61,117 nucleotides of DNA from positions 1 to 61,117 of IMG/VR virus record IMGVR_UViG_3300030330_002046; one strand, written 5' to 3'. Positions 758-61,117 of this stretch are shown here, one piece after another (positions within the stretch are counted from its first letter, which is position 1; the number at the start of each line of letters is the position of its first letter). The stretch is from a virus. Its lineage: Duplodnaviria > Caudoviricetes. A program made the position numbers and the translations under genes. The notes beneath the pieces are model-generated. The model saw nothing but the letters and a program-made list of their open reading frames with translations, was not told the DNA's origin and made no database searches.

Positions 758-789
758 TTTGGTTGTAAACTAAAAATAAACTATATTTG
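758..789 (+). promoter_or_regulatory. Bacteroidota sigma70-type promoter
   Basis: TTTG at 758-761 and TATATTTG (TAnnTTTG) at 782-789, upstream of ATG 818. Confidence 0.75.
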
Positions 790-10105: not shown

Positions 10106-10321
10106 AATGGGCGTGAGTGAGAGCAGTTAAACTCTTATAATCATAGCTACTGCAGGTAAGACTTCCGTACAAAACCTATGAGCCTATTATAAAATAACGA
10201 GAGTGTGCTGCGTGAGTGCTACATATCTAAATCCTAGCTTTAATTAATATGGGCTAGGTTGTTCTTGTACTCAGGGGAGTTAAATAAACTTGGTCGTCTA
10301 TGCGGCTCCCTTGATACTCTT
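10106..10321 (+). ncRNA. Candidate structured RNA (two multi-stem domains)
   Basis: Seven nested helices; G-U wobbles favour the + strand; gcgtgagtg occurs in both domains. Confidence 0.4.
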
Positions 10322-16300: not shown

Positions 16301-18198
16301 TGTTTAGGAGTTGGGTCGTTATTAATAGTAAAATTTACGGTGTTATTAACAGGGTAGTTGCCTTCACCATCATTAGTTTTTTTTATTTGATTATCTCTTT
16401 CTTTGCTAAATTCACTTATATATTTACTAACCTCTATTGGACCCTCAACAGTTACACTTGTTAGTAATAACCCGTCTTTTGAAAACGTATTAATTTTATA
16501 TGTACCATTAGGCTGAGCCTCAGCTTTTATGTCAAAAACTTTATTGAAAATTTCTTGTCTAGGTAAATTACTTTTTAGACCTGAAATTTCTTGCATAACT
16601 TTTTCAATTAAAGTTATAGGTGTATTTGCTCTATCTATAACACCCTCTAAATATTTTCGAGCTGCTTTAGGATTAAGCTCACCGCTTTCAATCTTTTTAT
16701 TTATATCAGTAAGTAAAGACCAAGCTTGCTCTTTTTCAGCTTCATTAAACTCTGTAAATTGTTTATTAAAAACAGACTTACCTTGAGCTATCTTAGACGC
16801 TAAACCAACTGCTCTAAAACCTATAACATATTTTAAAGCATCAGCCATACCATCTTTAAAAGACTCTGCGGTAAGTTCACCCTTAGGATTTTTAAGAGTT
16901 GGAGTAGTTGCGTTAATATAACCAAATGTACCTACCTCACCACCAAAACCAAATGACTCACCTACTGCACTTAATATCCTAGAATCATTCAAACCTCTTG
17001 ACCCTAAAACACCTGTAACACCTTTTTGTGAAACACTCTTAATTCCATCTGTTTTTAAGGCTGTACCTAGTCTAGGTATTTGCCTAGCAACTTGACCTAT
17101 TAAACCTAACCCTACACCAAGACCATAACCTTGTGAAAACGCTTCAGGAGATTGAGTGAAGTCTACATTTTCTATACCCCCTAATTCTTCTACTTGGGTT
17201 TGAAAATTTTTTGCAGTTTCAAAAAAACCGAACTTAGAACCTGCTTTATCTAATTGATTAACAACTTTAGGTAGCTGTTCTTGAACTATTCTTGATGCAA
17301 CTTCAGGTTTCATTCCTCTCTTAACTAAAGCATCAACGGTGTATTTACCTGCTCCTAGGATTGGTAGTTTTGGTAAAACCTTTGATGCACCTTTAACTAT
17401 AGCACCTCCAACTCCAACCTCAGGCATAACAAAAAAGTCTAAGACTGTGCTTAAAACACCTGTAACAAATTCATTAGTATCTCCATCCTTATAATCTGTT
17501 ATATTAAACATTGGCTCTGTAGTATACTTGTCTGCTGTAGGAATTATGGGTTCATCTTTACCCGTATACACAGGACCTGAAACAGGACCGGGAGTAGCAC
17601 CACTACTAGCTATCATTCTTCCAATAAGACCTGTAAAAGAATCATCATAAGATTTCTCTAAAGTTCTTGGTATTGTTAATAAATCCTCTTCATCTGCTTC
17701 TTGAGAATAAAGCTGAGGAGTTTTTTTCCAATCCTCTAAAGAAGGAACAGAAACATCACCTGCTTCTATTGCTTTACCATAAATGCTTTGATATAATTGC
17801 TCGTCTAACTCTGTTGGCGTTAATTCTCTTTCAACAGGTTCGTCCGTTTGAACGGACTTAGATATAACCTCTAAAGCTTTTTCTTTTGTTATACCACTTT
17901 CATCAGGACTTATTGTCTCGGAAACATCCGAAGAGATAACTTCTTCCTGCTCTGTCGGTGTAACAGATTCCATAACATCCTCTTGAGAAATAGAAACGGA
18001 CTCGTCTTTTTTTTTTACACCAACAAGTGTTGAAAATTCTTCTATAGACTTTTTGTATCCTTGTTCTTTAAATAAAGCATACGAGTCATTTAAAGCGTCA
18101 GGGTTTGTGTTTATAAGATTTACATATTCATCAAAAGATTTAGTATAACCTTTCTGTTTAAATAATTCGTAAGAATCCTTTAATGCCTGCTCGTTCAT
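10321..18198 (-). CDS. Giant (2625 aa) putative internal virion/ejection protein with zincin-like domain
   Basis: Last gene of the structural block; HEMGH...EEAMA metallopeptidase-like motif; coiled coils. Confidence 0.65.
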   Translation of the reverse strand: MNEQALKDSYELFKQKGYTKSFDEYVNLINTNPDALNDSYALFKEQGYKKSIEEFSTLVGVKKKDESVSISQEDVMESVTPTEQEEVISSDVSETISPDESGITKEKALEVISKSVQTDEPVERELTPTELDEQLYQSIYGKAIEAGDVSVPSLEDWKKTPQLYSQEADEEDLLTIPRTLEKSYDDSFTGLIGRMIASSGATPGPVSGPVYTGKDEPIIPTADKYTTEPMFNITDYKDGDTNEFVTGVLSTVLDFFVMPEVGVGGAIVKGASKVLPKLPILGAGKYTVDALVKRGMKPEVASRIVQEQLPKVVNQLDKAGSKFGFFETAKNFQTQVEELGGIENVDFTQSPEAFSQGYGLGVGLGLIGQVARQIPRLGTALKTDGIKSVSQKGVTGVLGSRGLNDSRILSAVGESFGFGGEVGTFGYINATTPTLKNPKGELTAESFKDGMADALKYVIGFRAVGLASKIAQGKSVFNKQFTEFNEAEKEQAWSLLTDINKKIESGELNPKAARKYLEGVIDRANTPITLIEKVMQEISGLKSNLPRQEIFNKVFDIKAEAQPNGTYKINTFSKDGLLLTSVTVEGPIEVSKYISEFSKERDNQIKKTNDGEGNYPVNNTVNFTINNDPTPKQPTTDLASIDEQITTDDVEELSPEVKTEVDAIKADENIDLSELDEITTTEKAPESVQSNIEKIEEFYNGKIEELQEEITVEESNTKEGIAEIKAKIADVRKDKSLSKDDKLESIEELKAELEDFKQEQKDIIGTYKDDIRVAKSEMKSDIKQAKKSVPEFRRKPLTTLTESQNTETDAKEAQILETLNERADNFINVSEIKETEATPSQINIEALNQRTGGNFKEIDIKTLDNVPVMLNISDQLTTGNYNPNVTDVNQNYSVTNPFTGNEIINLKGGLGFSSVKGHENIAWASVTQDKVNNQKNSAIKIYENNKPKFDKLWAEGVLPDGHIPMVIVKMGNDSMKSNEALIRVIKDNLASFPAKNKIAALKALNEELSNLKDKYKKVVDTGLTMRGKKASGLTIKNYSKFIGEIQDVQDMIKQSKAKSIEDILSTESLQSLKGITSVAQITNLITTGNFNVLKKQPGKSKKPVLKALYGDNPSQQDINKFNIKKIADVITEPELANVPQRSAFMVTSIDVKNPQTIRTNHPNYPFGPKGQVLGILKQPISIVDLIPSAYNNVALGIAEEITGERGSRSDAARLVQTIPVQAGLVNKEFLGTPIGVNPDSRFIDFLQRSFPETNMVVDAETFNSVMERDGVKKYLKDGDVIYGVTANGEIFINPDVHNSSSALYNTAIHEMGHVWTKYIKQSAKGKKIYNRGAELVKETDTYKEQLEIFNGDEVKAVEEAMAILIGNKGESITNQATKSKWIDWLMGLWDYIKSQFKQFKDLTNKEIQDLTLDQFLGTALRDILGGKPIKLTPKERAAMKADVAFKKASKSNKQVVEKVVTNLRNAGYSEVGIREILKEKGVNSKLINEIITEAPKVKKVKKEFDADVFIKEARDANFTDERIADYLTQKKGMKAKDVKEMLSVGLGDLPKSFANIKGGSKAGLKLFKRVNKFRDGLVSKNKSTKKDKLSEAQITDKTIEFLEKQPEYKAEAETYTLKGETKRRLGLSTIQAEMITEFQKMNPLRQTQAMRTKVETAKRDIRERARGARNLKETQNILKSFIRKTIPSTQYTKSEVIDLINKVTRADRASINNLINEVFEFATSKNVSILDGKITDILNLKTEELYSGRIKGVKVDSETAKLIQFIIKNRLTEDATAEQIELSEQVQRKEIEKLSENPEENISEIMAKTSLININNSLLMENIDPSKVDALDIALENLQALVEKGKSELARIIEAQKAEYDRQFELAYSEITGEKIDMSKDNKEELLRKSKRKLASEQNKKAVQGKAKAFADNILEGTRDFFYSAESLQGLIDAISKMPGELFGGKLQELVTDKVDASSRVFKERRLMYNDVLTKKFQEIYGKGWKKIVRSNAMFSTPIESLGITYSQNQLYYLYNQFKDPANRPTFKRMWGEDFMDVAKEIESKLDPKVKEFADWQVNEYFPSLYDYYNEVYKKIYRTDMPWNQFYAGRIYREGITPEALDLLGENSVVQTSVGGSSTKARVNNTNEIMAMDGTDALMTYLNDMEFFAAYAENIRDINKIFTNPIIKNSIEANHGKRLYTFIQDRIKQIANQGSKNPQATKFINAMNNVFITTRVALSPVIFLKQMTSTLTYASDIGFKNYLEYAVKNKKEMRKVFNEIKDNSVYMKDRGAENIMKVIESYTDSAMKQFVPTETKDYFINAMMWFVRTGDRGAIYLGGMPLYSYHKAQFKKNNPKATEQEAIDYAIIKFEKATKTTQQSADIQDKDFFQTGDALVRGLNAFKTTPKQYLRREIMSIRNLYRKFKAKDKNAGKGSINDNLREFFMFHMVMPAFFQWVSSGFPGLLTDFDDEDEVDMLRAVLLGNLNALFILGEVIEGIADYATDKPWAADVGKQVGIVELASSILKKAQRAKQVKDPELKAAYQKQLYSELLTLLRIPAPQLLRMKENAVKISEEDMDTGELILRLFNYSDYAIGKKKPTNKQRSMTKAQMKEDLPELYDVLYNSEGAKELKAVEKELQDLMDIE

Positions 18199-21246: not shown

Positions 21247-22059
21247 TTAAGGATAACTTTTAATTACGTCAGACTCTATAGAAAATAACTCACTTGCAGT
21301 AGTTACTACTGATGGTAAACTCAAAGTTATTTCAGCATAGTGACCTGATACCCCTGTAGATTCTGCTGCTGAATTTTTAGCTGCAAATATAAAGTCATTA
21401 GCAACCGGTGCATTACCCGAACCAACCGTAGTATCTATAACTACAGTTGTTGTCTCTGCTACTTGGTCTGTTGTGATAGACGTTATCCTACCTCCGTATG
21501 TAGCGAATGTATCACCTGATGACGCAAAGTATATGTAGTCATTTATATTTACAGAGCTACTAATATCTATATTAATATTAAAAACTATTGATGTAGCGTT
21601 AGCGGGACCTGAAACACTCGTGCATTCACCTATACCTCTAACACTTCTTGATTTATAATCAGACGCTGAAAGAGACGGTCCTGAAGAATCTACACCGTCA
21701 TTACGTAGATAGGCAAAGTATTGACCTTCTTTATTTTCAAAAGACCCACTATTAACGGTACTGCTCTGAGAGCCTATATCAGTACTTAAGTCAACAGCCC
21801 AAGCGTGAGTAGATTCTAAACTTATAGTTTTAAACACCTTATTCTCTAATGGTTGTTGATTTATAATAGTAGTTATTTCTGACCCTGTAACAACTCCATA
21901 AAATGTATTACGAGCAATATTAGTATTATGTCTATATAGCTGACCTTTATTGAAACTATATAAATAGTTATTCATTCCTATCATAAAGTCAGGGTAAAAA
22001 CTATAAAAAGATGGAAAACCCTTAGAGCTTTCGCTATATGTTAATGTGTAATTTGCCAT
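21247..22059 (-). CDS. Putative tail structural protein
   Basis: TLTYSE..KGFPSFYSF.PD.M..MNN.LYSF..GQLYRHN; resembles the C-terminal part of tail nozzle proteins. Confidence 0.55.
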   Translation of the reverse strand: MANYTLTYSESSKGFPSFYSFYPDFMIGMNNYLYSFNKGQLYRHNTNIARNTFYGVVTGSEITTIINQQPLENKVFKTISLESTHAWAVDLSTDIGSQSSTVNSGSFENKEGQYFAYLRNDGVDSSGPSLSASDYKSRSVRGIGECTSVSGPANATSIVFNINIDISSSVNINDYIYFASSGDTFATYGGRITSITTDQVAETTTVVIDTTVGSGNAPVANDFIFAAKNSAAESTGVSGHYAEITLSLPSVVTTASELFSIESDVIKSYP

Positions 22060-23089: not shown

Positions 23090-26000
23090 TTAAGTACAAT
23101 CACATTCAACAATTTGTATTTGAATACCGCTCGTTGCAGGTGTTACAACAGGAGTCGTTTGAGAGCAAATATCTATAGTATTCTTACCTGAACTTAATGA
23201 TGTGCTTTGAGTAGCACCATTTGTATCCGTATAAGAAATTGATACTGTTTCAGTTCCACCATTTTGTATTCTGTATTTAACATTTGTCTGAGCACAAGCA
23301 CATTCACAACAAACATCTTGAAGAACAGTATCACTACAAAGGAATTTGGATGGGTTCGCTCTAAGGTCCCAAACTAAATATAAATAGTCATAACTACCTG
23401 TTGGTACAGTAAAGTTTGCAATAGTTGTATTACCCGATACTGAAGGTGTAAACCTATTTGAAGCTCCACCTGACTTTATAGCTGCTAATAAAGCATTTAT
23501 TTGAGTAGTTGTGTTATTATATAAAGTATTAGTAGCAAGCATTAAAAATTTATCCCCTGAGCTTATATTATATGAATCAGTACTATATTTTATAGCTCTC
23601 ATAATTAAATCCTGACCTTTTATAGGTATACTACCTTCACCTTGAATGCCATCAAATACTTGATAATAAGACCTTTTTAAATAATCTGATGAGTATTCAA
23701 ATGAAACAGGAACTTCAGGAGAGCCCACATAAATAGTTCCATCAGTATATCTCCAATTATGGTGTATACTACTAAAAGTATCTTGAGGGCTAGTTAAAAC
23801 AATATCAACAACACTCAAAGGATTACCAAGAACACACTTAGTTGTTAAGTTAAAATCAGCAGTACCGTTACTAGCTGTAACAGTTACCGTATATTTATTT
23901 ACATTTCTTTTATTTTTATTAAAAGTAACACTACCAAGACCACTAATTGCTTGATTTATAACGGTTGACCCATCCCAATTAACTTCTATGTCTACAGGTG
24001 CAGAAGTAGGAACTTCAAATTGTATACTTACATCACCTATACCTGACTGAGTCTCAACGCAAAAACTAGATACTGCGTTACTTTTTAAAATAAATGATTG
24101 TTTTTGACCGCAAGGTATACATTTCTCTGTAGTAGGAAGTTCAATATTATTATTAGATAATACATACTCATTCATGTACGGGTCGTAAGCACCTAACTTT
24201 TGAGTGTTAAAATTATCTTTAAATAAATCTCTAAACCAACTTCTCATGCCTGCATCAGATATAACAATTAGCTGCTCAGAAGAACCTGAAGCTCCTTTTA
24301 GCTGTATTAAAGCACCTCTCTTAGCATCAGCAAAAAACTTATCGTAACCATAAGCTACAAAACTTTCAGTATTATGGCTTATTCCGTACTCTTCAATTCT
24401 AGCTACTTGCTTACCTAAAACCTCAGGGACAGATGTTAAAACATCACCACCTGCTGCGTCAGATAATAAATTCTTACCTGAGAGCACATAAGATATTTTA
24501 TCTTCTTGAAGTGCTAATACATCAGTTTCTCTTGCGTATATTTTATTTAAAGCACCAAAAGAATCTTCTAATGACTTAAAGTTTGCTAACCCTAAGTTAA
24601 ACTCATTAAGTCTATTTAAGTTAGTCTCATCATTGTATATACCACTGTAAGTAATATCACTATCTCTATGAACTTCCTTGTAATCTTGTTCAGAAATAGT
24701 TGTTACTCTATTTCCAAGCTGCATAGACTTTCCTTTTATAGAATCTCTTATGGTAAAACTTTCAACACCATTACCAAAAGTAAAGCAGTTTGCAAACCTT
24801 AAATGAAGTATTGCAGGTTGAGAAGATGATTGGTCTTGGTCTTGAGCATCAGCAAAATTACCTCCATCAAGATGGTATCCCGTAGATGTGTCAATAGGGT
24901 ATGTATCTTGACCCTCATACCATACATCAGGTAAAGACTCTGAAGGCTCAGTTTCAAATGCTATAACACTACCACTTCTAAAAATTTCAAAAGTAGCTTT
25001 AATTTTTGCATCACCCCCACTACCCGAACAAGATTGCATTCCTGTCATAATAAATTTAATCTCATCAGTAGTTGCGTCTCTAGCCCATTGGTATCTGTTA
25101 GTAGTGAAAGAAGCTCCATCTATAAAGTCATTTATTTGAGATTGAGTTGTAAGGTTTCCTGATATATATTCATTATTAACACTCGAAGGTGTTCTTTCTC
25201 CCGAATCAATAATATCACCTATGTTTTGACCATTCCACCAAGCAATTATATCAGGATATTCAACAGGTGATATAAATTCTCTTACTAATTTGTAACTTCT
25301 GTATTCACAACCAAAAGGTCTTCTATTTCTATAAAAATCAAAATTAATATTTATCCTTGTACCTGCAGGAATATTTTGTTGTGTAAAGTTACCTGAGTCA
25401 TCTTCTGTAGAAAATCCTTTATACTGAAGAGAAACTCTTTGACCACCTGAGTTTTCTTCTGCCGATTGCATTCCCGGCAATATATCAGTTCCATTAGTTT
25501 TTGAAGTTGAAAAGTTATTAGCAAGCATTTTCATATAAACACCTGCAGGAGATTCTACACCTGTCAAAAAGTTTTCACTTTGAGACTTTTTTTCTAAAAC
25601 AGTAGCCTTAACTAATCTATTTAAAGCATCTAAAGAATCTTTTTTGACTATTAAAACATCACCTTCCTCAACCTTTTGAATATTTTCACCTTCTAAAAGA
25701 AAATAAGTGTGACCATCAGAAGTATCTGTATAATAGAACCTAGAATATATTGTCTCATACTTTTCACCATCAGGTTTAATTACAAACTTATATCTTTTAG
25801 CAAAGCTAGGTGCTAACTGAGTAGTTGGTATAGTAACCTTTATTTTATTCTGACTAACACTATTTTCACTTGGTATTTTAACGGTATTATCTTGACTTGT
25901 TAAAGCTGTTGTAGCTCTATTAAATTCATCCATATACACAATACCAACCTGATAGCCTCTATTACTATGTAAGCTTTCAGGAACAGCTATTTTTTGAAAT

Positions 26001-52809: not shown

Positions 52810-54388
52810 TACTTCTCATCATGGTAATAATAGCATTAGTGCTAAGTAGTGTAACAGCAACTGACACAGCATTTTGAAGAGCGTTCTTAGTAACTTTCAT
52901 TGGGTCAATAATACCCATCTTCATCATATTACCATACTTATCATTTTTTACATCATAACCCCAACCCTTTGAAAAGTCATCAGAGTATATTGAGTTGTAA
53001 TTTAATCCTGCATTTTCAAGTATTGTTACAATAGGTGATAGTAAAGATACTTTAAGTATCTCATATGCACACTTCTTCTCATCAGACCAATTATCTTTTA
53101 CAACTAATTTACGTGATATGTTTTCAAGAGCTACTCCTCCTCCCGGAAGTATACCCTCAACAGTAGCAGAACGAACAGCACATACAGCATCATCAATACG
53201 GTCATACAGTTCTTTTTGCTCTAGGTCAGTTTTACCTCCTGCATATATAACACCTACACCTCCTGTCAAAGAAGCTATACGTGATAGTATAAACTCACGG
53301 TCAGCTTTTTTATCAGTTATATCATGTGCATCACGAAGCTCAGATACTCGCTTATCAATATCATCTTTAGATACTACACTCTCATCTTTAATAATAATAG
53401 ATGAATCTTTACCTACTATAATTTTTTTAGCCTTACCTAAATCTTTAGGTAGTATCAGACTAAGGTCGTCACCTGTCTTTTCAGAAAAATATGTAGCACC
53501 AACAGATAGTGCAATATCATTCATCAACTCATGTTGCTTGTAACCAAAACTCGGTGGTGATATAACACATATCTTCAAACCGTTCTTCATAACATTAGCA
53601 GCAAGAGTGTTTAACACGTTAGAAGATGCGTTAGCTATAATCAATAACTTTTCACCCTTATTAATAATTGGTTTTAAAACATTCTCAATCTGTAATACAT
53701 TTGTTATCTCAGCATCACTAACAAGAATATTTACATCCTCATAAATACACTCGTCCTTTTTGTGATTATTAATAAATAAATTACTAGAATAACCACGGTC
53801 AACCTTAATACCGTTAGTAACCTCAAAATATGTTTCAGAAGACTGAGAGTTCTCAACCGTAACTATTCCATCTGTACCAACTGAATTATATACTTTAGAT
53901 ATTATATTACCTATATAGGAATCATTGTTGGCAGAAATAGTAGCAACATCCTCAAGTTTATTATTATCAACAGGCTTACTCATCTTCTTAAGATTTTCCA
54001 CTACAACCTTTGTAGCTTCAACTAGCTCTCTAAGAACTAATGTCTTATTCATACCCGACTTTATCATCTCATTACCCGCAAGAGATAAAGCTTGCGATAA
54101 CACGATTGCAGTAGTAGTACCATCACCGGCATTAGTCGCTGTCTTTTCCGAAGCTTCCTTTACAATACGTACTGCAAGATTTTCCACAGAGTCAAGCAAG
54201 CTAATAGACTTAGCAACTGTAACACCATCTTTAGTAACGGTGATTCCATGAGTATGATTTTCTGATTCAATTAGCACTGTGTTACCTCTAGGACCGAGAG
54301 TGCTCTTTACTGCGTTAGTAATTTTTTCTAATCCGCTGAAAAGTTTTTTTCTACCCTCATCAGCAAAGTGTAATTCTTTTGGATTCAT
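52799..54388 (-). CDS. groEL: Chaperonin GroEL-like
   Basis: TLGPRG, TKDGVTVAK, AGDGTTTA, ILPGGG, GIIDPMKV. Confidence 0.95.
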   Translation of the reverse strand: MNPKELHFADEGRKKLFSGLEKITNAVKSTLGPRGNTVLIESENHTHGITVTKDGVTVAKSISLLDSVENLAVRIVKEASEKTATNAGDGTTTAIVLSQALSLAGNEMIKSGMNKTLVLRELVEATKVVVENLKKMSKPVDNNKLEDVATISANNDSYIGNIISKVYNSVGTDGIVTVENSQSSETYFEVTNGIKVDRGYSSNLFINNHKKDECIYEDVNILVSDAEITNVLQIENVLKPIINKGEKLLIIANASSNVLNTLAANVMKNGLKICVISPPSFGYKQHELMNDIALSVGATYFSEKTGDDLSLILPKDLGKAKKIIVGKDSSIIIKDESVVSKDDIDKRVSELRDAHDITDKKADREFILSRIASLTGGVGVIYAGGKTDLEQKELYDRIDDAVCAVRSATVEGILPGGGVALENISRKLVVKDNWSDEKKCAYEILKVSLLSPIVTILENAGLNYNSIYSDDFSKGWGYDVKNDKYGNMMKMGIIDPMKVTKNALQNAVSVAVTLLSTNAIITMMRSNGK

Positions 54389-54410
54389 TGTATATTAAAT
54401 TTGATTTACG

Positions 54411-54418
54411 CAAAGATA
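54411..54418 (-). promoter_or_regulatory. TAnnTTTG promoter for groEL-phoH-groES
   Basis: TATCTTTG upstream of ATG 54388. Confidence 0.65.
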
Positions 54419-54440
54419 GTATATTTTATTTTATTCCAAA

Positions 54441-54600
54441 ATGTTAGAATGACGCTTTTTTCCTCTCCTACTATATATATATATATTATCCCTTTATATA
54501 TTTTTTTATTTACTCTAAAATAGAAATAAAATCAACATTATTAACATTAGTACTGATAATCAATTAGTTAGACTAAAAAAAACAACATTAAAACAACATA
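54441..54600. repeat. Second copy of the AT-rich origin-like element (see 3923-4080)
   Basis: Same ordered blocks, same orientation. Confidence 0.55.
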
Positions 54601-54628
54601 GTATATGTCAATAATAAACATATAAAAC

Positions 54629-54656
54629 AAAAAAAGAGGGATTAACCCTCTTCTTT
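54629..54656 (-). terminator. Intrinsic terminator, possibly bidirectional
   Basis: aagaggg-attaa-ccctctt flanked by A-rich and T-rich runs. Confidence 0.6.
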
Positions 54657-54703
54657 GAAGTGAACGTCACTACCCATTCACTCCTCATCAAACACAATGA
54701 ACC

Positions 54704-54856
54704 TTAAATATCGTCAATGTAATTTTTATAATGCACACTAATAAGTCCTAAGTATAAAATAAACTCAGAGTAATTATACTGCTCATCAGAACTAAAATAA
54801 GCAAAGCCTAAACAAAAACCTATCTTAATTCTATTTTGTATTTCTATTTCATACAC
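54704..54856 (-). CDS. Small hypothetical protein (50 aa, GTG start; not in ORF track)
   Basis: MYEIEIQNRIKIGFCLGFAYFSSDEQYNYSEFILYLGLISVHYKNYIDDI; followed by a terminator. Confidence 0.45.
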   Translation of the reverse strand: MYEIEIQNRIKIGFCLGFAYFSSDEQYNYSEFILYLGLISVHYKNYIDDI

Positions 54857-55310
54857 GGGGTAAAGGTATAAAAAAAATTAGATATATAGAACTAAAAGGT
54901 TATGTGTTGCGTGCAGCGTGCCGGTCGCCCTCAGAAAACCGATTTTGTGCTGAGGGGTGGGGGTTCGTTTTCGCTCGGTGCAATCGGATTTTTTGCCGTT
55001 TTACTGCCGTAAGTCTACAAGCCTTGCAGTACGTTTGGTGCAGTGTTTCGCATTCACGTTTGTAAGGCTCATATTAACCATGATTAACTGCTTTGTCCGT
55101 TCAAACGGACTGCATTCCCTTGTAAACAAAGGCTCTCAGAGATTCGAGATGCAGAGAGAGGATGCACAGCCCCTCCCCGACCATCACCACACCAAACTTT
55201 TCTTGGGGATTTGTCCCGTCTACATCTCAAGTATATACTGAGATTAGACAAAAGATGTAAAAAAAATGAAAATAAATGCGTTTAGCTATTGTATTGTACT
55301 AGAATTAAAC

Positions 55311-55318
55311 TATATTTG
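55311..55318 (+). promoter_or_regulatory. Early-operon promoter
   Basis: TATATTTG with TTG at the -33 position; degenerate palindrome gtccgagaaacgtac just downstream. Confidence 0.7.
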
Positions 55319-55380
55319 TAAAGTGAGTCCGAGAAACGTACTCCGATAATTTAACTTAAATAACTAAAAATCAAGTAATT

Positions 55381-55995
55381 ATGAGACAAATTAATCCAAT
55401 TTTCGAAGAATTGTTAGGAAACAATTGTAATGAGTTCAATGGTGCATTGACGTTAGTAACTGAGTTACAAGACTCAGAGAAGAAGACGTTTGATAAGCAA
55501 ATCAAATTGGCTCACAAGATTTACAAAACATTCGAGTATTTCAAATCAGCCGAATGTAAGCAACAGATGGATTACATTGGTGTAGTGATGACTACCGAAG
55601 AATTCCACAAGCAAATATTCGGATACAACAAATCATTCTTTTACGACATGGTTAAAGTTGGTAAGCTACGTGATGAGTCTAATGACACTATCACTAAGTA
55701 CAAGCGAGAATGTACGAAGTTAGAAAACCAAAACGATAAGACTGCTTCGAGAAGCATCAAGAATCTACTCAAGTACGCTAAGGCAGTTGAGACTGATGGC
55801 GATGATGCTGAGGTTGAATCTACATCTACTACTCTGATGACGTTCGCTATCAAAGGCGATATATTCGATGATGGCAAAGGCGTTTCTATGCGTTTGACTG
55901 CTGACGGACAGATTCATATCAGTGGCGATGAGGATAAGATTCCTCCAATGGTTACTGCATCGTTTAATGAGATGAGAACATCACTAAATTCATAG
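55381..55995 (+). CDS. Hypothetical early protein
   Basis: 204-aa first gene of the + arm. Confidence 0.8.
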   Translation: MRQINPIFEELLGNNCNEFNGALTLVTELQDSEKKTFDKQIKLAHKIYKTFEYFKSAECKQQMDYIGVVMTTEEFHKQIFGYNKSFFYDMVKVGKLRDESNDTITKYKRECTKLENQNDKTASRSIKNLLKYAKAVETDGDDAEVESTSTTLMTFAIKGDIFDDGKGVSMRLTADGQIHISGDEDKIPPMVTASFNEMRTSLNS

Positions 55996-56062
55996 GTTAA
56001 CTGACGAGTCTTCAATAGACGAAACTTGAGTCCGTTTAAACGGACGGACTTGAGTCTTAACC
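55995..56062 (+). ncRNA. Type I hammerhead ribozyme HHR1 (cleavage after C56056)
   Basis: GGTTAA CTGACGA GTCT-tcaat-AGAC GAAA CTTGAGTCC...GGACTTGAG TC TTAACC. Confidence 0.93.
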
Positions 56063-56080
56063 AATAAAAAACAAATAGTT

Positions 56081-56263
56081 ATGACAATTACAATTCAAAA
56101 CGCAAACGGAATCAAATTATGCTCATTCGATGTATGTGCTGAGTACGGATACGAGCAATTCATCCTTGACAATTCTCTTCAGGGTTGTAAGGTAATCAAT
56201 GGAAATCATGAGATTGACATGATATACCCAAATTCAGATGAAATTATAATACAATTAGCTTAA
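56081..56263 (+). CDS. Small hypothetical protein
   Basis: 60 aa; ATG 24 nt after the HHR1 cut site. Confidence 0.65.
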   Translation: MTITIQNANGIKLCSFDVCAEYGYEQFILDNSLQGCKVINGNHEIDMIYPNSDEIIIQLA

Positions 56264-56309
56264 TAAATTAACCATGTCCGTTTAAACGGACTACAAAAAC
56301 CAAATAGTT

Positions 56310-57272
56310 ATGATACAAGGAATTAATTATGCCGTTGAGAACAACCCTAACAGAGGGAGAATGTTACAATACCATGAGGCGAGTAGAATCGGTCTACCAT
56401 TCAGAAAGCTAAACCATACAACACATGAGCGTGATTTGACTCATTTACCGAGAAATACACGTGATTTGACTACCTTTACTAATGATGATGGTGCATTTCA
56501 GTCAAAGTTTGCGATAGGCTTTGAGATTGAGAAGAATAGCTTTCATCGTGGAGCAGTCAAAGAATATCCATTATTCAGTCATTTCGAGTACGATTCATCA
56601 TGTGGAGTTGAAGCAGTGACTAACTTGCTACCATTAGTGGACAAGTCAGTTTGGCGTAACAAGGTGCTTGGTATGTTCTCTGAAGCAAGTAAGATTATTG
56701 AAGATAGATACTCACCATCAAATCAAAGATGTGGAGGTCACATTACTCTTTCTTGTGTGGGTATGAGTGGACAAGACTTGGCTGATAAGCTAAGACCATA
56801 TGCAGGTATTATCTACGCTCTATGGCGATTCAGATTACGCAATTCATATTGCTATGGGAACTTGATGATGAATACAAGTGATTATCATCGTGATTGGGTT
56901 GGACATACGTCAAGCAGTAAGTATCACGTATGTAAGATTATGGACGATAGAATTGAGTTCCGTCTACCTAACCGAGTGGAGTCAGTTAGAAGCATTAATC
57001 TTCGCTATAGGCTTATGTATGAGTTGATGAATTACGCTATCAACAAGCCAAACGGCACGTACGCAGGATTCATCAAGAAGATTAAATCTATACTCTTGTA
57101 TATGTACGATGGCAATGAAGCTAAAGTTGATGAGATTGTTACTCTATCAAAGGCATTCAGAAAGATGCTGATGAGTGGTAAGATTAACGCTGAGGTTGTG
57201 CAGTGGGTTGACCAATACAATAGGCTTACATCACACTACACTACGAGCTTACGCAGAGCTACTGAGAGATGA
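56310..57272 (+). CDS. Putative amidoligase (glutamine-synthetase-fold COOH-NH2 ligase, Amidoligase_2-like)
   Basis: IGFEIE, DSS...VEAVT, CGGHI, RIEFR in the expected order. Confidence 0.7.
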   Translation: MIQGINYAVENNPNRGRMLQYHEASRIGLPFRKLNHTTHERDLTHLPRNTRDLTTFTNDDGAFQSKFAIGFEIEKNSFHRGAVKEYPLFSHFEYDSSCGVEAVTNLLPLVDKSVWRNKVLGMFSEASKIIEDRYSPSNQRCGGHITLSCVGMSGQDLADKLRPYAGIIYALWRFRLRNSYCYGNLMMNTSDYHRDWVGHTSSSKYHVCKIMDDRIEFRLPNRVESVRSINLRYRLMYELMNYAINKPNGTYAGFIKKIKSILLYMYDGNEAKVDEIVTLSKAFRKMLMSGKINAEVVQWVDQYNRLTSHYTTSLRRATER

Positions 57273-57277
57273 TTTAT

Positions 57278-57305
57278 GGGTGTCCGTTCAAACGGACGGA
57301 TGCCC
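57278..57305 (+). other. Palindrome-containing hairpin just upstream of HHR2
   Basis: gggtgtcc-gttcaaacggac-ggatgccc. Confidence 0.75.
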
Positions 57306-57309
57306 TCTC

Positions 57310-57360
57310 TCCGTCCACAAGTGAGTGCTTGTGCTGATGAGACCAAAAGGTCGAAACGGA
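57310..57360 (+). ncRNA. Type III hammerhead ribozyme HHR2 (cleavage after C57315)
   Basis: TCCG TC CACAAGT-gagt-GCTTGTG CTGATGA GACC-aaaa-GGTC GAAA CGGA. Confidence 0.93.
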
Positions 57361-57379
57361 AACTTAAAACCAAATTATT

Positions 57380-57529
57380 ATGAAAAAGTTTAATTATTGG
57401 GCAGTCTTTGTATTGCTATTAGCAAGTGCGATAGGTACGATTTACGCTTTCGCAGTGAGTGGAAGTCTTGTATGGATATTATTAATATTCAGCAGTATTT
57501 ACGCAATTAATTTACACTTAAACCAATAG
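57380..57529 (+). CDS. Small membrane protein (49 aa; not in ORF track)
   Basis: MKKFNYWAVFVLLLASAIGTIYAFAVSGSLVWILLIFSSIYAINLHLNQ; typical aaattattATG leader. Confidence 0.6.
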   Translation: MKKFNYWAVFVLLLASAIGTIYAFAVSGSLVWILLIFSSIYAINLHLNQ

Positions 57530-57534
57530 AAACT

Positions 57535-57672
57535 ATGGAAGCAAAAGCAATAGTAATCGAGGGTAAGTTGGTAAGGATTGATGCCTGTGGAAATTTCTAC
57601 AGGCTCAATGGACTTGGCAAGTGGACTCAGATAAAACCAATGGAATTGTATGAGTTGATAACGCAAGGTTAA
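57535..57672 (+). CDS. Small protein (45 aa; not in ORF track)
   Basis: MEAKAIVIEGKLVRIDACGNFYRLNGLGKWTQIKPMELYELITQG; stop TAA lies in HHR3 stem I. Confidence 0.6.
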   Translation: MEAKAIVIEGKLVRIDACGNFYRLNGLGKWTQIKPMELYELITQG

Positions 57673-57730
57673 CTGATGAGAGTTTATTACTCGAAACATT
57701 AGTCCGTTCAGACGGACTGATGTCTTAATC
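57667..57730 (+). ncRNA. Type I hammerhead ribozyme HHR3 (cleavage after C57724)
   Basis: GGTTAA CTGATGA GAGT-ttatt-ACTC GAAA CATTAGTCCGTT-ca-GACGGACTGATG TC TTAATC. Confidence 0.93.
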
Positions 57731-57743
57731 AAAATTTAATATT

Positions 57744-57941
57744 ATGGAAACAATACAACAAGAGTACCTAAAGAAATTAGTAAACGCTACAGAGACTTAC
57801 ATAAAGAAGTTGGAAGAAGTTCAAGATGACGCACACTTTTATCAGGTAAAGGTAGAGGGTAGACATATCGTTCTTGACATCGCAGACGTAGTTGTTCACC
57901 TACACATGAAGTTAAAGAAGTATAAGGATTTGGTAGATTAA
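57744..57941 (+). CDS. Small hypothetical protein
   Basis: 65 aa; ATG 19 nt after the HHR3 cut site. Confidence 0.7.
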   Translation: METIQQEYLKKLVNATETYIKKLEEVQDDAHFYQVKVEGRHIVLDIADVVVHLHMKLKKYKDLVD

Positions 57942-57960
57942 AATATTATTCTTATCTTTG
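57929..57960 (+). promoter_or_regulatory. Internal Bacteroidota-type promoter
   Basis: TTTG at 57929-57932 and TATCTTTG at 57953-57960. Confidence 0.65.
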
Positions 57961-57992
57961 TCTAAATTTAGTTCAATTAAAACAAAAAAGCT

Positions 57993-58271
57993 ATGCTACA
58001 TTTAAGAGGTCAGTACAGACTGACAAACAAGAAGTACAAAATCAACAAGAAGTTTGATATTACTATCGGTTATGCATCTCCGAACAGAATAACAAAGTCT
58101 TTCGTTAACAGATGCAAGGAGGGAATGGCTGATGACATTGGTCAAGAGATTACTGAATGGTTACTTGATAACTTTTGGGTTAAAGAGTACGAGGAGATAA
58201 GAGAGTTAAGTAAATGCTCTCCTGATGTTGATGACATTAAAATAACAGTTCATGCAAATAAAATCAAATAA
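57993..58271 (+). CDS. Hypothetical protein
   Basis: 92-aa ORF. Confidence 0.65.
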   Translation: MLHLRGQYRLTNKKYKINKKFDITIGYASPNRITKSFVNRCKEGMADDIGQEITEWLLDNFWVKEYEEIRELSKCSPDVDDIKITVHANKIK

Positions 58272-58290
58272 CCAATTAAATTAAATTATT

Positions 58291-58467
58291 ATGAAAGAAC
58301 AAATCTATATGTTAGTTGAATTCAACGGAGAAAATGTACTCCCAAGATTTAGTGTAAGAGAAACTTTTAAAACTTTTGAAGAAGCGAAAGACAAGCTAAA
58401 TATGTTAAACCAAGAAGCTAAAGAAAATGGTTGGACACGAAATTATATTTTAACTAAATCATTATAA
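58291..58467 (+). CDS. Small protein (58 aa; not in ORF track)
   Basis: MKEQIYMLVEFNGENVLPRFSVRETFKTFEEAK...; shared leader taaccaattaaattaaattattATG. Confidence 0.65.
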   Translation: MKEQIYMLVEFNGENVLPRFSVRETFKTFEEAKDKLNMLNQEAKENGWTRNYILTKSL

Positions 58468-58475
58468 AATCAAAT

Positions 58476-58514
58476 ACTTGTGTCCGTTCAAACGGACGGA
58501 CATAAGTTTTAACC
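58476..58514 (+). other. Hammerhead remnant (stem III and 3-prime stem I only)
   Basis: acttgtgtcc...ggacataagt-t-ttaacc; no CTGANGA or stem II upstream. Confidence 0.7.
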
Positions 58515-58537
58515 AATTAAATTAAAATCAAATAATT

Positions 58538-58849
58538 ATGAGTAAGCTAGAAAAAAGTTTTCAGAAAGTACGTTACGTAGGTTGGGAGAGTTCAATGTCT
58601 CCTACGATAGAGCGTGAGAAAAAGACAATGCAATACCATGTTGGTTGGAACAAGGAGTCTAATCGTGGTTGGTTTGAAATCTACGATGTTGAGAGTGGTG
58701 GTGAGGACTACTACGCAGAGGGTGGGCTTGAGTTCACCGGCAAGGTCTTAGATGGATACGATGGTGTGTTTTCCTTAGACGATGAGGTTATTAAGTGCGT
58801 CAAGGGTTGGGGTGCTGATACAAAGGACATGGAAGGAATATTAAGTTAG
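58538..58849 (+). CDS. Hypothetical protein
   Basis: 103 aa; stop TAG overlaps HHR4. Confidence 0.75.
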   Translation: MSKLEKSFQKVRYVGWESSMSPTIEREKKTMQYHVGWNKESNRGWFEIYDVESGGEDYYAEGGLEFTGKVLDGYDGVFSLDDEVIKCVKGWGADTKDMEGILS

Positions 58850-58912
58850 GTTAACTGATGAGGATTAAGTATCCGAAACTTGAGTCCGTTGTAACGGACT
58901 CGAGTCTTAACC
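58849..58912 (+). ncRNA. Type I hammerhead ribozyme HHR4 (cleavage after C58906)
   Basis: GGTTAA CTGATGA GGAT-taagt-ATCC GAAA CTTGAGTCCGTT-gt-AACGGACTCGAG TC TTAACC. Confidence 0.95.
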
Positions 58913-58928
58913 AATTAAATTAAATATT

Positions 58929-59090
58929 ATGGGACAAATGAAAGAATTATTTATCTCGATGCAAGAGGGACTCATGCAAGGGATAGCAATCACGAATGCT
59001 CAGCGTGAGCGTCAGTTGGATGACGAGCATCAGATGAGCGTATCAAAAAAAGTAAAATCAAAAAACAAAACCAATGAAAGCAAACAATAA
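58929..59090 (+). CDS. Small protein (53 aa; not in ORF track)
   Basis: MGQMKELFISMQEGLMQG...; ATG 22 nt after the HHR4 cut site. Confidence 0.55.
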   Translation: MGQMKELFISMQEGLMQGIAITNAQRERQLDDEHQMSVSKKVKSKNKTNESKQ

Positions 59091-59334
59091 AATCATAGCA
59101 GAGTTTATGGGCGACAAGCCTAAAGAATTATTATACACAACATTGTACATAGATTATAGTTCGTCTTGGGACTTGCTTATGCCGGTCGTCCAAAAGATAG
59201 GCGATGAATACTACAACACACCATTTGATGAGACATACTCAAAACTTACAGAGCAATACGAAAACATTTGGACATTGGAAGATACGTACAATGCAGTTGT
59301 AGAGTTTATCAAAGAGCAAAACGAGATAGGTTAA
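59074..59334 (+). CDS. Hypothetical phage protein
   Basis: NKIIAEFMG...YSSSWDLLMPVVQKI...YNAVVEFIK; stop in HHR5 stem I. Confidence 0.75.
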   Translation: MKANNKIIAEFMGDKPKELLYTTLYIDYSSSWDLLMPVVQKIGDEYYNTPFDETYSKLTEQYENIWTLEDTYNAVVEFIKEQNEIG

Positions 59335-59392
59335 CTGATGAGGACTGAGTGTCCGAAACATTAGTCCGTTACAACGGACTGATGTCTTAACC
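59329..59392 (+). ncRNA. Type I hammerhead ribozyme HHR5 (cleavage after C59386)
   Basis: GGTTAA CTGATGA GGAC-tgagt-GTCC GAAA CATTAGTCCGTT-ac-AACGGACTGATG TC TTAACC. Confidence 0.95.
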
Positions 59393-59408
59393 AATTAAAT
59401 TTAATACT

Positions 59409-59792
59409 ATGGGATATTATAGTGAAGTGTACATAGCAGTACCAAAAAAAGCTGAAGCTGAAATGGACAAGGCAATGAATAGTAATAACTTACTTACTAA
59501 GCCTCAGTTTGAAACAAGTCCATCATTTAAAAAGTATGACCACATACAAAAGTGGTCAGAGTATAAAGATAATCAGAGAATTGAAACGTCAAGAGAACTT
59601 GTAATATACGAGGGATTTTGGCTCAAGTGGTATCCTGAGTACAAAGACGTTCAAGCAGTCACAAGCGTGGTTGAAAACCACGAAGATGATGGAGCGTGTA
59701 TCGTGTGCGTAGGCGAAGATGGTGCAGTCCATTCTAACACCGGAGAGTACGATGATGTATTCAATGTTTATGTAAAAGTAGAATTAACTTAA
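59409..59792 (+). CDS. Hypothetical phage protein
   Basis: MGYYSEV...WLKWYPEYKDV...VGED; ATG 22 nt after the HHR5 cut site. Confidence 0.75.
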   Translation: MGYYSEVYIAVPKKAEAEMDKAMNSNNLLTKPQFETSPSFKKYDHIQKWSEYKDNQRIETSRELVIYEGFWLKWYPEYKDVQAVTSVVENHEDDGACIVCVGEDGAVHSNTGEYDDVFNVYVKVELT

Positions 59793-59803
59793 ATTAAAAT
59801 CAG

Positions 59804-60325
59804 ATGAGTATAATTAATAACAAAAAAGATAGCGAAGACTATATTAAAAATCATACAACAACAGAATCTAAAATTATGGAAAACAAGACAATTGAATGGG
59901 GGTGGGAAAAAAGTCAGCCCTCAAACATGAGAAGCAAAGAACATCAAGCGTTCTTAATCAAGGAGTACAACAAGAATAGACCGGAGCATCTGCAAGTTAA
60001 AGATATGGCAGAGTTGAACAGAGCCTTGTTAGATACTGAGGTTAAGTATCTTGGTATGCGTAGCGTAACTATTACAGAGCGTAGAGTATACCATAAGGTT
60101 GGTAAGGTTACCATAGAGTTGCCTAAAGACTTACCATTAGACCAAACTGATGAGTGGTTGGAGAAGAATACTCAGAAGTGGGAACAAGAGTTGGACAATC
60201 AGTTTAATACTGCTAAGCTTGAGTTTGGAACCGGTGTTTTAGAATGTGATGGTATGTCATATGAAAGTGCAGACAGAGAGACAAGATACGATGTCAACGG
60301 AGAAAGCTTCGGAGGTCACGTCTAA
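59804..60325 (+). CDS. Hypothetical protein (start uncertain)
   Basis: 173-aa ORF; second plausible ATG at 59876. Confidence 0.7.
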   Translation: MSIINNKKDSEDYIKNHTTTESKIMENKTIEWGWEKSQPSNMRSKEHQAFLIKEYNKNRPEHLQVKDMAELNRALLDTEVKYLGMRSVTITERRVYHKVGKVTIELPKDLPLDQTDEWLEKNTQKWEQELDNQFNTAKLEFGTGVLECDGMSYESADRETRYDVNGESFGGHV

Positions 60326-60341
60326 AAAAAAGTACAATAAA

Positions 60342-60374
60342 ATTTGGTAGTGTCTAAATTTTGTTGTATATTTG
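60342..60374 (+). promoter_or_regulatory. Promoter of the GATase-GGCT gene
   Basis: TTTG near 60342-60345 and TATATTTG at 60367-60374. Confidence 0.7.
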
Positions 60375-60440
60375 TACAAATCAAATACAATTAATCAGAG
60401 GTCAGTCCGTTCAGACGGACTCCTCGCAAACAAAAAACTT

Positions 60441-61117
60441 ATGTGCGTAATTATTATTAAGCAAAAGCAAAAGATGATGTCAAGAGAGATTGCAAAGACA
60501 TCAGCAAGAATCAATCCTCATGGATTGGGTATCGTGTGGTTAGATACATTCGAGGTAACCTACCACAAATCAAAAGACTACAATGTCTTATTAACAGAGC
60601 GACCATTCATTGCTCACTTTAGATATGCTACTGTAGGTGCTATCAACAAGGACAATACACACCCATTTCAGTGTGGTAAAAACAAAGATGAATGGCTAAT
60701 GATGAATGGTACAATACATGGTATGGGTAATGCTCAGATGTGTGACTCAAAAGTATTGGCTATTGCTTTAGGTCAGATGCCACGACAAACTTGGAAGAAA
60801 GAGTTGTCTAAGTATGAGTGCCGGTTTGTTGCAGTCAATACTCGGAATCGTTCGTTCCAAATATTCAACAAGCATCTTTACACATACAAGGACGGCATTT
60901 GGTATTCAAAAGCCAATGTGCTTCAAGAGAATCTTGTAGCAGTGTATGGTACACTAAAGAAAGGATACTCTAACTACAACACCTACCTACGTAATGCAAA
61001 GTATGTAGGTAGTGGAGTTACTAAGGACAAGTACCCTTTAGTTATCAAAGGTCTGCCTTACATGGTGGATAAGAAAGGTGTAGGTCACAATGTTGAGGTT
61101 GATGTGTTCAAGGTAAG
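60441..61117 (+). CDS. Class II (Ntn) glutamine amidotransferase fused to gamma-glutamylcyclotransferase; continues across the join to 516 (366 aa total); not in ORF track
   Basis: MC start, NPHGLG, IAHFRYATVG, NTHPF, MNGTI, CDS; then GGCT motif VAVYGTLKKGYSNY. Confidence 0.88.
   Translation, partial: MCVIIIKQKQKMMSREIAKTSARINPHGLGIVWLDTFEVTYHKSKDYNVLLTERPFIAHFRYATVGAINKDNTHPFQCGKNKDEWLMMNGTIHGMGNAQMCDSKVLAIALGQMPRQTWKKELSKYECRFVAVNTRNRSFQIFNKHLYTYKDGIWYSKANVLQENLVAVYGTLKKGYSNYNTYLRNAKYVGSGVTKDKYPLVIKGLPYMVDKKGVGHNVEVDVFKV

Follow-up and report, generated by a model that had tools for sequence, protein, structure and literature searches.

The stretch of DNA analyzed here ("the window") comprises all 61,117 nucleotides of the virus record IMGVR_UViG_3300030330_002046 (Duplodnaviria; Caudoviricetes). 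It is a complete genome of 61 kb that belongs to an uncultured marine phage, and it carries hammerhead motifs between the small genes of a plus-strand early region. Judged from their conserved cores and covarying helices, the four type I motifs appear to be genuine hammerhead ribozymes. The most plausible explanation of their presence, and one that we regard as probable, is that intercistronic hammerheads process an early polycistronic mRNA within an array of small genes in which cassettes are shuffled. The initial annotation had proposed that RNA fragments released at two successive type I sites re-form a hammerhead from their own two ends and may become circular mRNAs. Such circles are geometrically possible but unsupported, and they are very unlikely to be the reason for the arrangement.

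Sequence and layout of the type I hammerheads

All four type I copies have the same order of elements, i.e., GGUUAA, CUGA(U/C)GA, stem II, GAA, stem III, C, and then UUAACC. Their positions and variable helices are listed in Table 1. The conserved core is complete in every copy and consists of CUGA(U/C)GA (CUGAUGA in three copies, CUGACGA in the copy at 55995), GAA, the A15.1-U16.1 pair, and C17 as the non-G nucleotide at the cleavage site. Stem I is open and has 6 bp, stem II has 4 bp and a 5-nt loop, and stem III is closed and has 12-14 bp. The 5' strand of stem I is GGUUAA in all four cases. It pairs with UUAACC in three copies, and with UUAAUC in the copy at 57667, which leads to one G.U pair. 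The distal hairpin of stem III, GUCCGU-N4-ACGGAC, is also constant across the four copies. The initial annotation had stated that stem I is common to all type I copies and that stems II and III vary. This was verified with the sequence and a motif finder, the variation of stem III being in its proximal part.

The motifs are located between a stop codon and the next start codon. The upstream stop is found at -2 (TAG, two of four) or at +3 (TAA in stem I, the other two), and ATG codons follow 19-24 nt after the cut. The ORF (open reading frame) upstream of hammerhead 1 encodes 204 aa, its TAG overlaps the first G of stem I, and the next ATG is 24 nt past the cut. The ORFs upstream of hammerhead 2 (45 aa) and hammerhead 4 (86 aa) both stop at the TAA within stem I, and in the latter case the next ATG follows 22 nt past the cut.

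Table 1. Positions of the hammerheads, predicted fragments, and repeated elements in the window.
Feature	Position	Strand	Description
Type I hammerhead 1	55995-56062	+	predicted cut after C56056; stem II GUCU/AGAC; proximal stem III ACUUGA/UUGAGU
Type I hammerhead 2	57667-57730	+	predicted cut after C57724; stem II GAGU/ACUC; proximal stem III ACAUUA/UGAUGU
Type I hammerhead 3	58849-58912	+	predicted cut after C58906; stem II GGAU/AUCC; proximal stem III ACUUGA/UCGAGU
Type I hammerhead 4	59329-59392	+	predicted cut after C59386; stem II GGAC/GUCC; proximal stem III ACAUUA/UGAUGU
Candidate type III hammerhead	~57310-57360	+	predicted cut after C57315; core and helices by eye
Decayed hammerhead	~58452-58515	+	alignment with live copies, full length
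Predicted released fragment, 1182 nt	57725-58906	+	ORFs of 65, 92, 58, and 103 aa; promoter-like motif 57929-57960; decayed copy; hammerhead 3 at 3' end
Predicted released fragment, 480 nt	58907-59386	+	ORFs of 53 and 86 aa; hammerhead 4 at 3' end
Leader copy TAACCAATTAAATTAAATTATTATG	58269-58293	+	gene start, no ribozyme
Palindromic hairpin GTCCGTTCAAACGGAC	57282-57297	+	directly 3' of 320-aa ORF, just upstream of type III hammerhead
GTCCGT-N4-ACGGAC copies	719, 2355, 3532, 7436, 10071, 17842, 31235, 55095
GTCCGT-N4-ACGGAC copies, continued	56030, 56276, 57282, 57702, 58482, 58884, 59364, 60405

Evidence for genuine hammerhead ribozymes

The core pattern CTGAYGA-N8-20-GAAAC was found six times in the window, compared to 0.15 expected occurrences, and none of 100 shuffled sequences reached six. 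Five of the six matches are clustered within 56001-59359 on the plus strand. A core-like match at 23686-23707 was rejected as a chance match, because it is located inside a minus-strand gene and lacks the helices.

A separate covariance model, R1, was built because Rfam missed the copies at its curated thresholds. Only other phage contigs were used for R1, with 70 type I hammerheads in total. Searching the window with this model revealed exactly four type I sites, namely hammerhead 1 with 53.7 bits (E = 1.2e-12), hammerhead 2 with 55.2 bits (E = 4.4e-13), hammerhead 3 with 58.4 bits (E = 5.5e-14), and hammerhead 4 with 56.2 bits (E = 2.2e-13). The next match had an E-value of 0.37. All 15 modelled pairs were aligned by R1 in the window copies.

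The three helices covary across the 70 phage copies. Cells that are changed on both sides of a pair numbered 349, versus 85.5 in shuffles, and none of 500 shuffles reached this value. Changes on both sides were observed for 13 of the 15 pairs, and the covariation score was 0.879, versus 0.163 in shuffles. In the same alignment the 6-bp stem I is closed by a near-invariant G-C pair, with a near-invariant A just before it and AA just after it. Stem II has a length of 13 nt in 103 of 110 phage type I copies, with the loop pattern U.A.U. These shared features of the phage type I subfamily suggest that loop II and the end of stem I are in a conserved tertiary contact.

Placement of type I hammerheads in other phages

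Matches to GGTTAA-CTGAYGA-N8-20-GAAAC are present in at least 127 viral contig stretches. A seed-unbiased scan (CTGATGAG-N11-CGAAAC, without the GGTTAA constraint) was used to sample the family more broadly. Among the 126 distinct matches listed, 92 are type I, 14 are type III, 14 have an unpaired stem II segment, and six belong to neither type. The idea that GGUUAA is the universal stem I of phages was rejected, as only 14 of the 92 type I copies among the matches listed carry it. What seems to be conserved in the phage type I hammerheads is the pairing of stem I, while its sequence is diverse.

The placement relative to genes was counted for the 102 type I copies of the unbiased sample that had enough flank. 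The upstream ORF ends between -28 and +18 of the stem I start in 94 of the 102 copies, and within -9 to +7 in 77 of them. The downstream ORF starts at most 80 nt past the cut in 93 copies, and 19-28 nt past the cut in 56. By its placement, the type I hammerhead of this phage family is to be regarded as an intercistronic element, and the four copies of the window fit this rule.

The identity of the single parts was also compared within and between arrays. The mean identity of stem I is 0.74-0.78 within arrays and 0.48 between arrays. The respective values are 0.63 versus 0.53 for stem II, 0.63 versus 0.47 for stem III, and 0.47 versus 0.37 for the next 12 bases of the leader.

A repeated leader and the turnover of cassettes

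Copies of the leader UAACC-AAUUAAAUU stand at several gene starts, some of which have a ribozyme and some of which do not. Five exact matches to TAACCAATWWAA are present in the window, all of them within 56058-59399, and two of these (58269 and 58510) are not preceded by a live ribozyme. The leader has no Shine-Dalgarno-like purine run, which suits a Bacteroidota host.

Two sister strains, G001 and G002, are ~90-97% identical to the window over this region. Each of them has four ribozymes, i.e., orthologues of the copy at 55995, of the type III copy, of the copy at 57667, and of the copy at 59329. The copy at 58849 is missing together with its cassette from both strains, as 57990-58911 is absent in G001 and 58266-58912 in G002. 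In addition, G001 lacks 56085-56297 and has an extra insert of 405 nt at 57665, and 59406-59865 is replaced in G002. The break points are located in the repeated leaders (TAACCAATTAAATT..., CAAATAGTTATG) or at ribozyme edges, with overlaps of 9-24 nt at the joints. The units at 58849 and 59329 have stem I, the leader, and the first two codons in common. On the evidence of these sequences, the 3' strand of stem I is best seen as part of the repeated leader module, and cassettes would have been gained and lost there.

DNA contigs of four runs were compared with 55000-61117. The window phage itself is present among them as short identical contigs, and contigs of other strains diverge at 57665, 57697, 57946, 59433, and 59792. 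The six joints reported were not counted as evidence of cassette variants, because their sides had only 23-34 letters at 85% likeness.

One difference between the strains concerns stem I directly. The orthologue of the copy at 57667 has GAUUAA/UUAAUC in G001 and G002, versus GGUUAA/UUAAUC in the window. The GAUUAA of the relatives restores a Watson-Crick pair in cis, which argues for selection on local pairing.

As a fallback for the identical stem I, the initial annotation had named duplication plus constraint from the stop codon and the leader. Only part of this explanation held. The leader repeats with and without a ribozyme and the strain-specific cassettes that end in the leader speak for it. 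The stop codon was rejected as the main cause of GGUUAA, because only two of the four upstream ORFs use the TAA of stem I, while in the other two the stop is a TAG overlapping the first G of the stem, and because four of the six stem I pairs are free to covary across the family.

A probable type III hammerhead and a decayed copy

The motif at 57310-57360 is a probable type III hammerhead. It consists of stem III (UCCGU/ACGGA), a stem I hairpin (CACAAG-UGAGUG-CUUGUG), the core CUGAUGA, stem II (GACC-AAAA-GGUC), and GAA. The matched core string of 30 nt is identical in both relatives.

A further element, at 58452-58515, retains the stem III hairpin as well as UUAACC and the leader. It has CUAAAUCA instead of CUGAUGA and AAU instead of GAA, and the 58-aa ORF terminates inside it. 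Model R1 gave no match at this site at E<=1. The element was classified as a decayed hammerhead because the live copies can be aligned to it over its full length but it no longer has the core.

Proposed processing of the early mRNA

The reading that we favor, ribozyme punctuation of the early mRNA, would operate as follows. A long early transcript would be made, and each of the five hammerheads would fold co-transcriptionally and cut. A type I ribozyme would remain at the 3' end of the upstream piece and provide it with a stable, structured end with a stem III of 12 bp, terminated by a 2',3'-cyclic phosphate. The downstream piece would have a 5'-OH, followed by an unstructured leader that is short and rich in A/U (UUAACCAAUUAAAUU...), and the AUG would follow 19-24 nt on. 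The type III copy would stay at the 5' end of the downstream fragment, as a structured cap. Neighboring cistrons would thereby be uncoupled in stability and translation, and cassettes would be gained and lost through DNA recombination at the leader module. Stem I would be identical because its 3' strand is made up of the first six bases of the leader, and copies of this leader stand at gene starts whether a ribozyme is present or not. We infer from these sequences that the precursor is polycistronic and is cleaved in vivo, that stability and translation are affected, and that recombination is the homogenizing force.

Several results weigh against this explanation or narrow it. Rfam at its gathering thresholds gave no match in the window. 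At E<=1, RF00163 matched only 55995-56041, with 33.5 bits versus a cut-off of 34, and this alignment truncates or misaligns the 28-32-nt stem III. The threshold of RF00163 is a poor test for the window copies, because the Rfam consensus has only a 4-bp, loopless stem III. For the type III candidate, RF00008 gave 18 bits versus a cut-off of 48.5. The E-value mode of Rfam also gave one weak sRNA (small RNA) match, which is irrelevant here. In thermodynamic folds with +/-60 nt of context, the probability of stem I was 0.00-0.06 at three sites and 0.45 at the fourth, and activity would thus depend on co-transcriptional folding. The finder that chose the sequences for the covariation and array-identity tests demands pairing, and this inflates the percentage of paired cells. 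In addition, the leader accounts for the uniformity of stem I only in part, because stem I is more uniform within arrays than the other parts are. Recent local duplication, or recombination at the element, would produce such an excess just as well. Lastly, some genes may have their own transcription in addition, as suggested by the host-type promoter-like motif at 57929-57960.

Fragment ends, possible circular mRNAs, and other explanations

The five predicted cuts would release four internal fragments, i.e., 56057-57315, 57316-57724, and the fragments of 1182 nt and 480 nt (Table 1). According to the initial annotation, the last two begin with UUAA(U/C)C and end with the remainder of a type I hammerhead, and their ends can pair into a complete ribozyme. 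A sequence check showed that both fragments begin and end as claimed. The ends are complementary, and a nearest-neighbor fold rebuilt the three-way junction in both cases. The ability of both fragments to re-form a hammerhead is due to the shared 6-bp stem I. The minimum-energy structure of both fragments in ViennaRNA holds the rebuilt hammerhead, with stem I at ~0.6 for the terminal pair and at 0.89-0.95 for the other five.

The circular-mRNA proposal builds on this geometry. The 5'-OH end UUAA(U/C)C of a cut fragment would dock on its own GGUUAA, and the reverse reaction or an RtcB-type ligase would seal the junction, resulting in coding circles or in cassettes rejoined in trans. We give this little credence. 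The same low credence applies to the extended version, in which a uniform stem I is maintained within the array to let every 5'-OH leader dock on every ribozyme 3' end, yielding circular or re-assorted early mRNAs that are exonuclease-resistant. Only two observations point to this extended version, namely that no other part is as uniform within arrays as stem I, and that 19 of 31 successive type I pairs in the unbiased phage sample are fully cross-compatible. The other 12 pairs are mismatched and can form only three to five of the six base pairs, and the array groups L141, L166, and L173 have entirely different stems I. In the window itself, the fragments 56057-57315 and 57316-57724, i.e., two of four, cannot rebuild a hammerhead because the type III copy intervenes, and the boundary at the 58849 copy, which belongs to both re-pairing fragments, is absent in both relatives. 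The end pairing is also unspecific. Fixed ends with a shuffled interior gave a mean probability of 0.57, six of 20 shuffles equaled or exceeded the native value, and loops of 480-1182 nt are closed at nearly no cost in the energy model. By itself, stem I forms a weak duplex of -4.1 kcal/mol (-1.5 in the 1182-nt fragment, which has the G.U pair), and this makes joining in trans implausible. Furthermore, the minimum-energy fold of the circle keeps an intact hammerhead, with no alternative rod-like or compact fold predicted, and a circle should thus cut itself again. Type I retrozyme monomers of like geometry were circularized to 30-80% by RtcB in vitro, but self-circularization of retrozyme hammerheads reached only 1-3% (PMC7229834). 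None of the 74 ORFs of the window matched an RNA ligase family in the Pfam and PHROGs scans. The stop and start codons are placed where ribosomes would compete with stem I, and the UAACC leader is also found at two gene starts that have no ribozyme. Circular or spliced products of tandem phage hammerheads have been sought before and none were detected, as stated with data not shown in PMC3088659. Taken together, nothing indicates selection for the re-pairing of fragment ends.

Two further explanations dispense with RNA processing as the main role. The hammerhead-plus-leader units could act mainly as short DNA homologies for the exchange of early-gene cassettes between phages, with RNA cleavage being secondary. 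We consider this unlikely, even though the four deletions or replacements and two insertions among the three strains all end in the leader or at ribozyme edges, the units at 58849 and 59329 are so alike, and the GGUUAA form is found on viral contigs of many sizes. DNA homology alone needs neither perfectly kept catalytic cores nor helices that covary to keep the pairing, and the ribozyme-less leader at 58269 is an equally good break point. Moreover, DNA exchange is compatible with processing and does not replace it. The motifs could also be inactive or neutral remnants of a selfish element that are of no use to the phage, which we regard as extremely unlikely. One copy has plainly decayed, and the 58849 copy is dispensable, as its absence from both relatives shows. 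Against remnants stand the four orthologous sites with intact cores in three strains, the compensatory change in stem I that restores pairing in the relatives, and the precise placement relative to stop and start codons across the 102 family members. Ribozyme punctuation of an early transcript thus remains the explanation that we prefer.

Genome context and additional elements

The record has direct terminal repeats and a G+C content of 33.5%, and its sequence has been seen solely in marine DNA metagenomes. Among the 20 runs listed for 55900-59800, all of which are DNA or of unspecified kind, there is no RNA run. In the window 74 ORFs were called and scanned against Pfam and PHROGs. A structural block on the minus strand (10321-54388) encodes the portal, the large terminase, and two further proteins, one having a crAss-type muzzle C-terminal domain and the other a type IX secretion sorting domain. 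The latter points to a host that probably belongs to the Bacteroidota. A plus-strand block extends from ~55080 through the record end to 9931 and encodes a Sak annealing protein, an exonuclease, a primase-helicase, an SNF2 helicase, VRR-NUC, and HNH. Its opening 5 kb are formed by an array of 14 small ORFs, none of which matched any family in Pfam or PHROGs. A blastn search with 55900-60400 against 50,697 phage records gave no match.

No terminator-like site was found on the plus strand in 54300-61117, and all four sites that were detected are on the minus strand. The early plus-strand block is therefore probably transcribed by read-through. The motif TTTG-N17-21-TAnnTTTG, which we take to be the Bacteroidota promoter consensus, matched seven times in the window, versus 3.2 expected matches. 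Four matches are at sensible intergenic spots, i.e., 758-789 (+), 57929-57960 (+), 60343-60374 (+), and 54411-54440 (-).

The hairpin GTCCGT-N4-ACGGAC, which forms the distal stem III of all four type I copies, is found 16 times in the window, versus none expected from 100 shuffles. At 719, 10071, and 31235 it is a terminator stem with a T-run, at 56276 and 60405 it stands alone before genes, and some other copies are intragenic. It is absent from most type I hammerheads of other phages, being present in 10 of 110. The hairpin might be bound by a phage or host factor, or it might be a stabilizer that is spreading.

The ORF 60372-61115, which is open at the record end, has a GATase domain and matches positions 1-62 of the GGACT profile. 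The first ORF of the record (37-516) matches positions 49-116 of the same profile, and the two look like one gene across the record ends or the terminal repeat. The ORF of 2625 aa at 10321-18198 (-) has no significant family match, and the protein with the crAss-type muzzle domain is encoded at 21247-22059 of the same phage. By analogy to crAss-like phages, we assume that the 2625-aa ORF could be a virion RNA polymerase.

Comparison with known systems

The circles of viroids and retrozymes are non-coding, and their compact, self-paired fold disfavors an active ribozyme. In contrast, the window fragments are full of ORFs, and their predicted circles keep the hammerhead folded. The window resembles retrozymes and viroid-like RNAs in having tandem type I hammerheads and predicted 5'-OH and 2',3'-cyclic phosphate ends that could be joined by an open stem I, as described by Cervera and de la Pena 2020 (PMC7229834). 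Retrozyme units are, according to that article, identical non-coding tandem repeats of ~170-400 nt that are seen as circles and sealed mainly by tRNA ligase. The units of the window are unrelated coding cassettes of 409-1259 nt, which share only stem I, the core, and the leader. They are not tandem direct repeats of one unit, as the series is interrupted by the type III and decayed copies, and only two of the four fragments have ends that a re-formed ribozyme could join.

We know of no natural protein-coding ribozyme circles in bacteria, and for this reason the circular-mRNA idea would be notable if true. Nothing in the window lifts it above a speculation that has been published and whose products were not detected. 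No report of circular RNAs arising from the hammerhead arrays of phages or prophages came up in literature searches, which excluded supplements.

The early mRNA of the phages T7 and T3 is cut by RNase III at intercistronic hairpins into defined mRNAs, which leaves a stabilizing 3' hairpin. In the window the RNA itself would cut, without a host nuclease, and it would leave 5'-OH and cyclic phosphate ends. The promoter-early stem-loop (PeSL) elements of T4-type phages, which were reportedly described by Arbiol et al. in 2010, are said to be mobile regulatory cassettes. As with PeSL, the repeated element of the window is intergenic and regulatory, surrounds small accessory genes of a plastic region, and is found where the strains have their cassette break points. 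Unlike PeSL, which combine a promoter and a stem-loop, the repeated unit of the window is a ribozyme plus a leader.

The closest known arrangement is that of prophages. Clustered hammerheads that flank prophage genes in the same layout are described by Perreault et al. 2011 (PMC3088659), and 2-kb constructs with tandem phage hammerheads were cleaved at all sites in vitro. Closely spaced hammerheads around single small genes or short blocks of non-conserved genes are common to those arrays and the window, and cutting into gene-length mRNAs was proposed there. Circular or spliced products were already suggested in that paper, so that neither the arrangement of the window nor the idea of circles is new. 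In two reviews the role of bacterial hammerheads (PMC6155905), or of bacterial and phage hammerheads (PMC6765202), is still called open. The features of the window to be set beside the 2011 arrays are that every copy except one belongs to type I, that the 6-bp stem I is uniform, and that stem II measures 13 nt. In addition, its distal stem III is a palindromic hairpin that is used genome-wide, and its lineage is marine and probably infects Bacteroidota. Three features stand out locally, namely the uniform stem I that is tied to a repeated leader, the distal stem III that consists of a genome-wide palindromic hairpin, and the decayed copy and strain-specific cassettes that record turnover. With four type I copies and one type III copy between stop codon and leader, one decayed copy, and two sister strains that differ in their cassettes, the window is a clean natural example. 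If this phage or a relative were cultured, it would be a convenient system for studying the effect of ribozyme processing on phage early gene expression.

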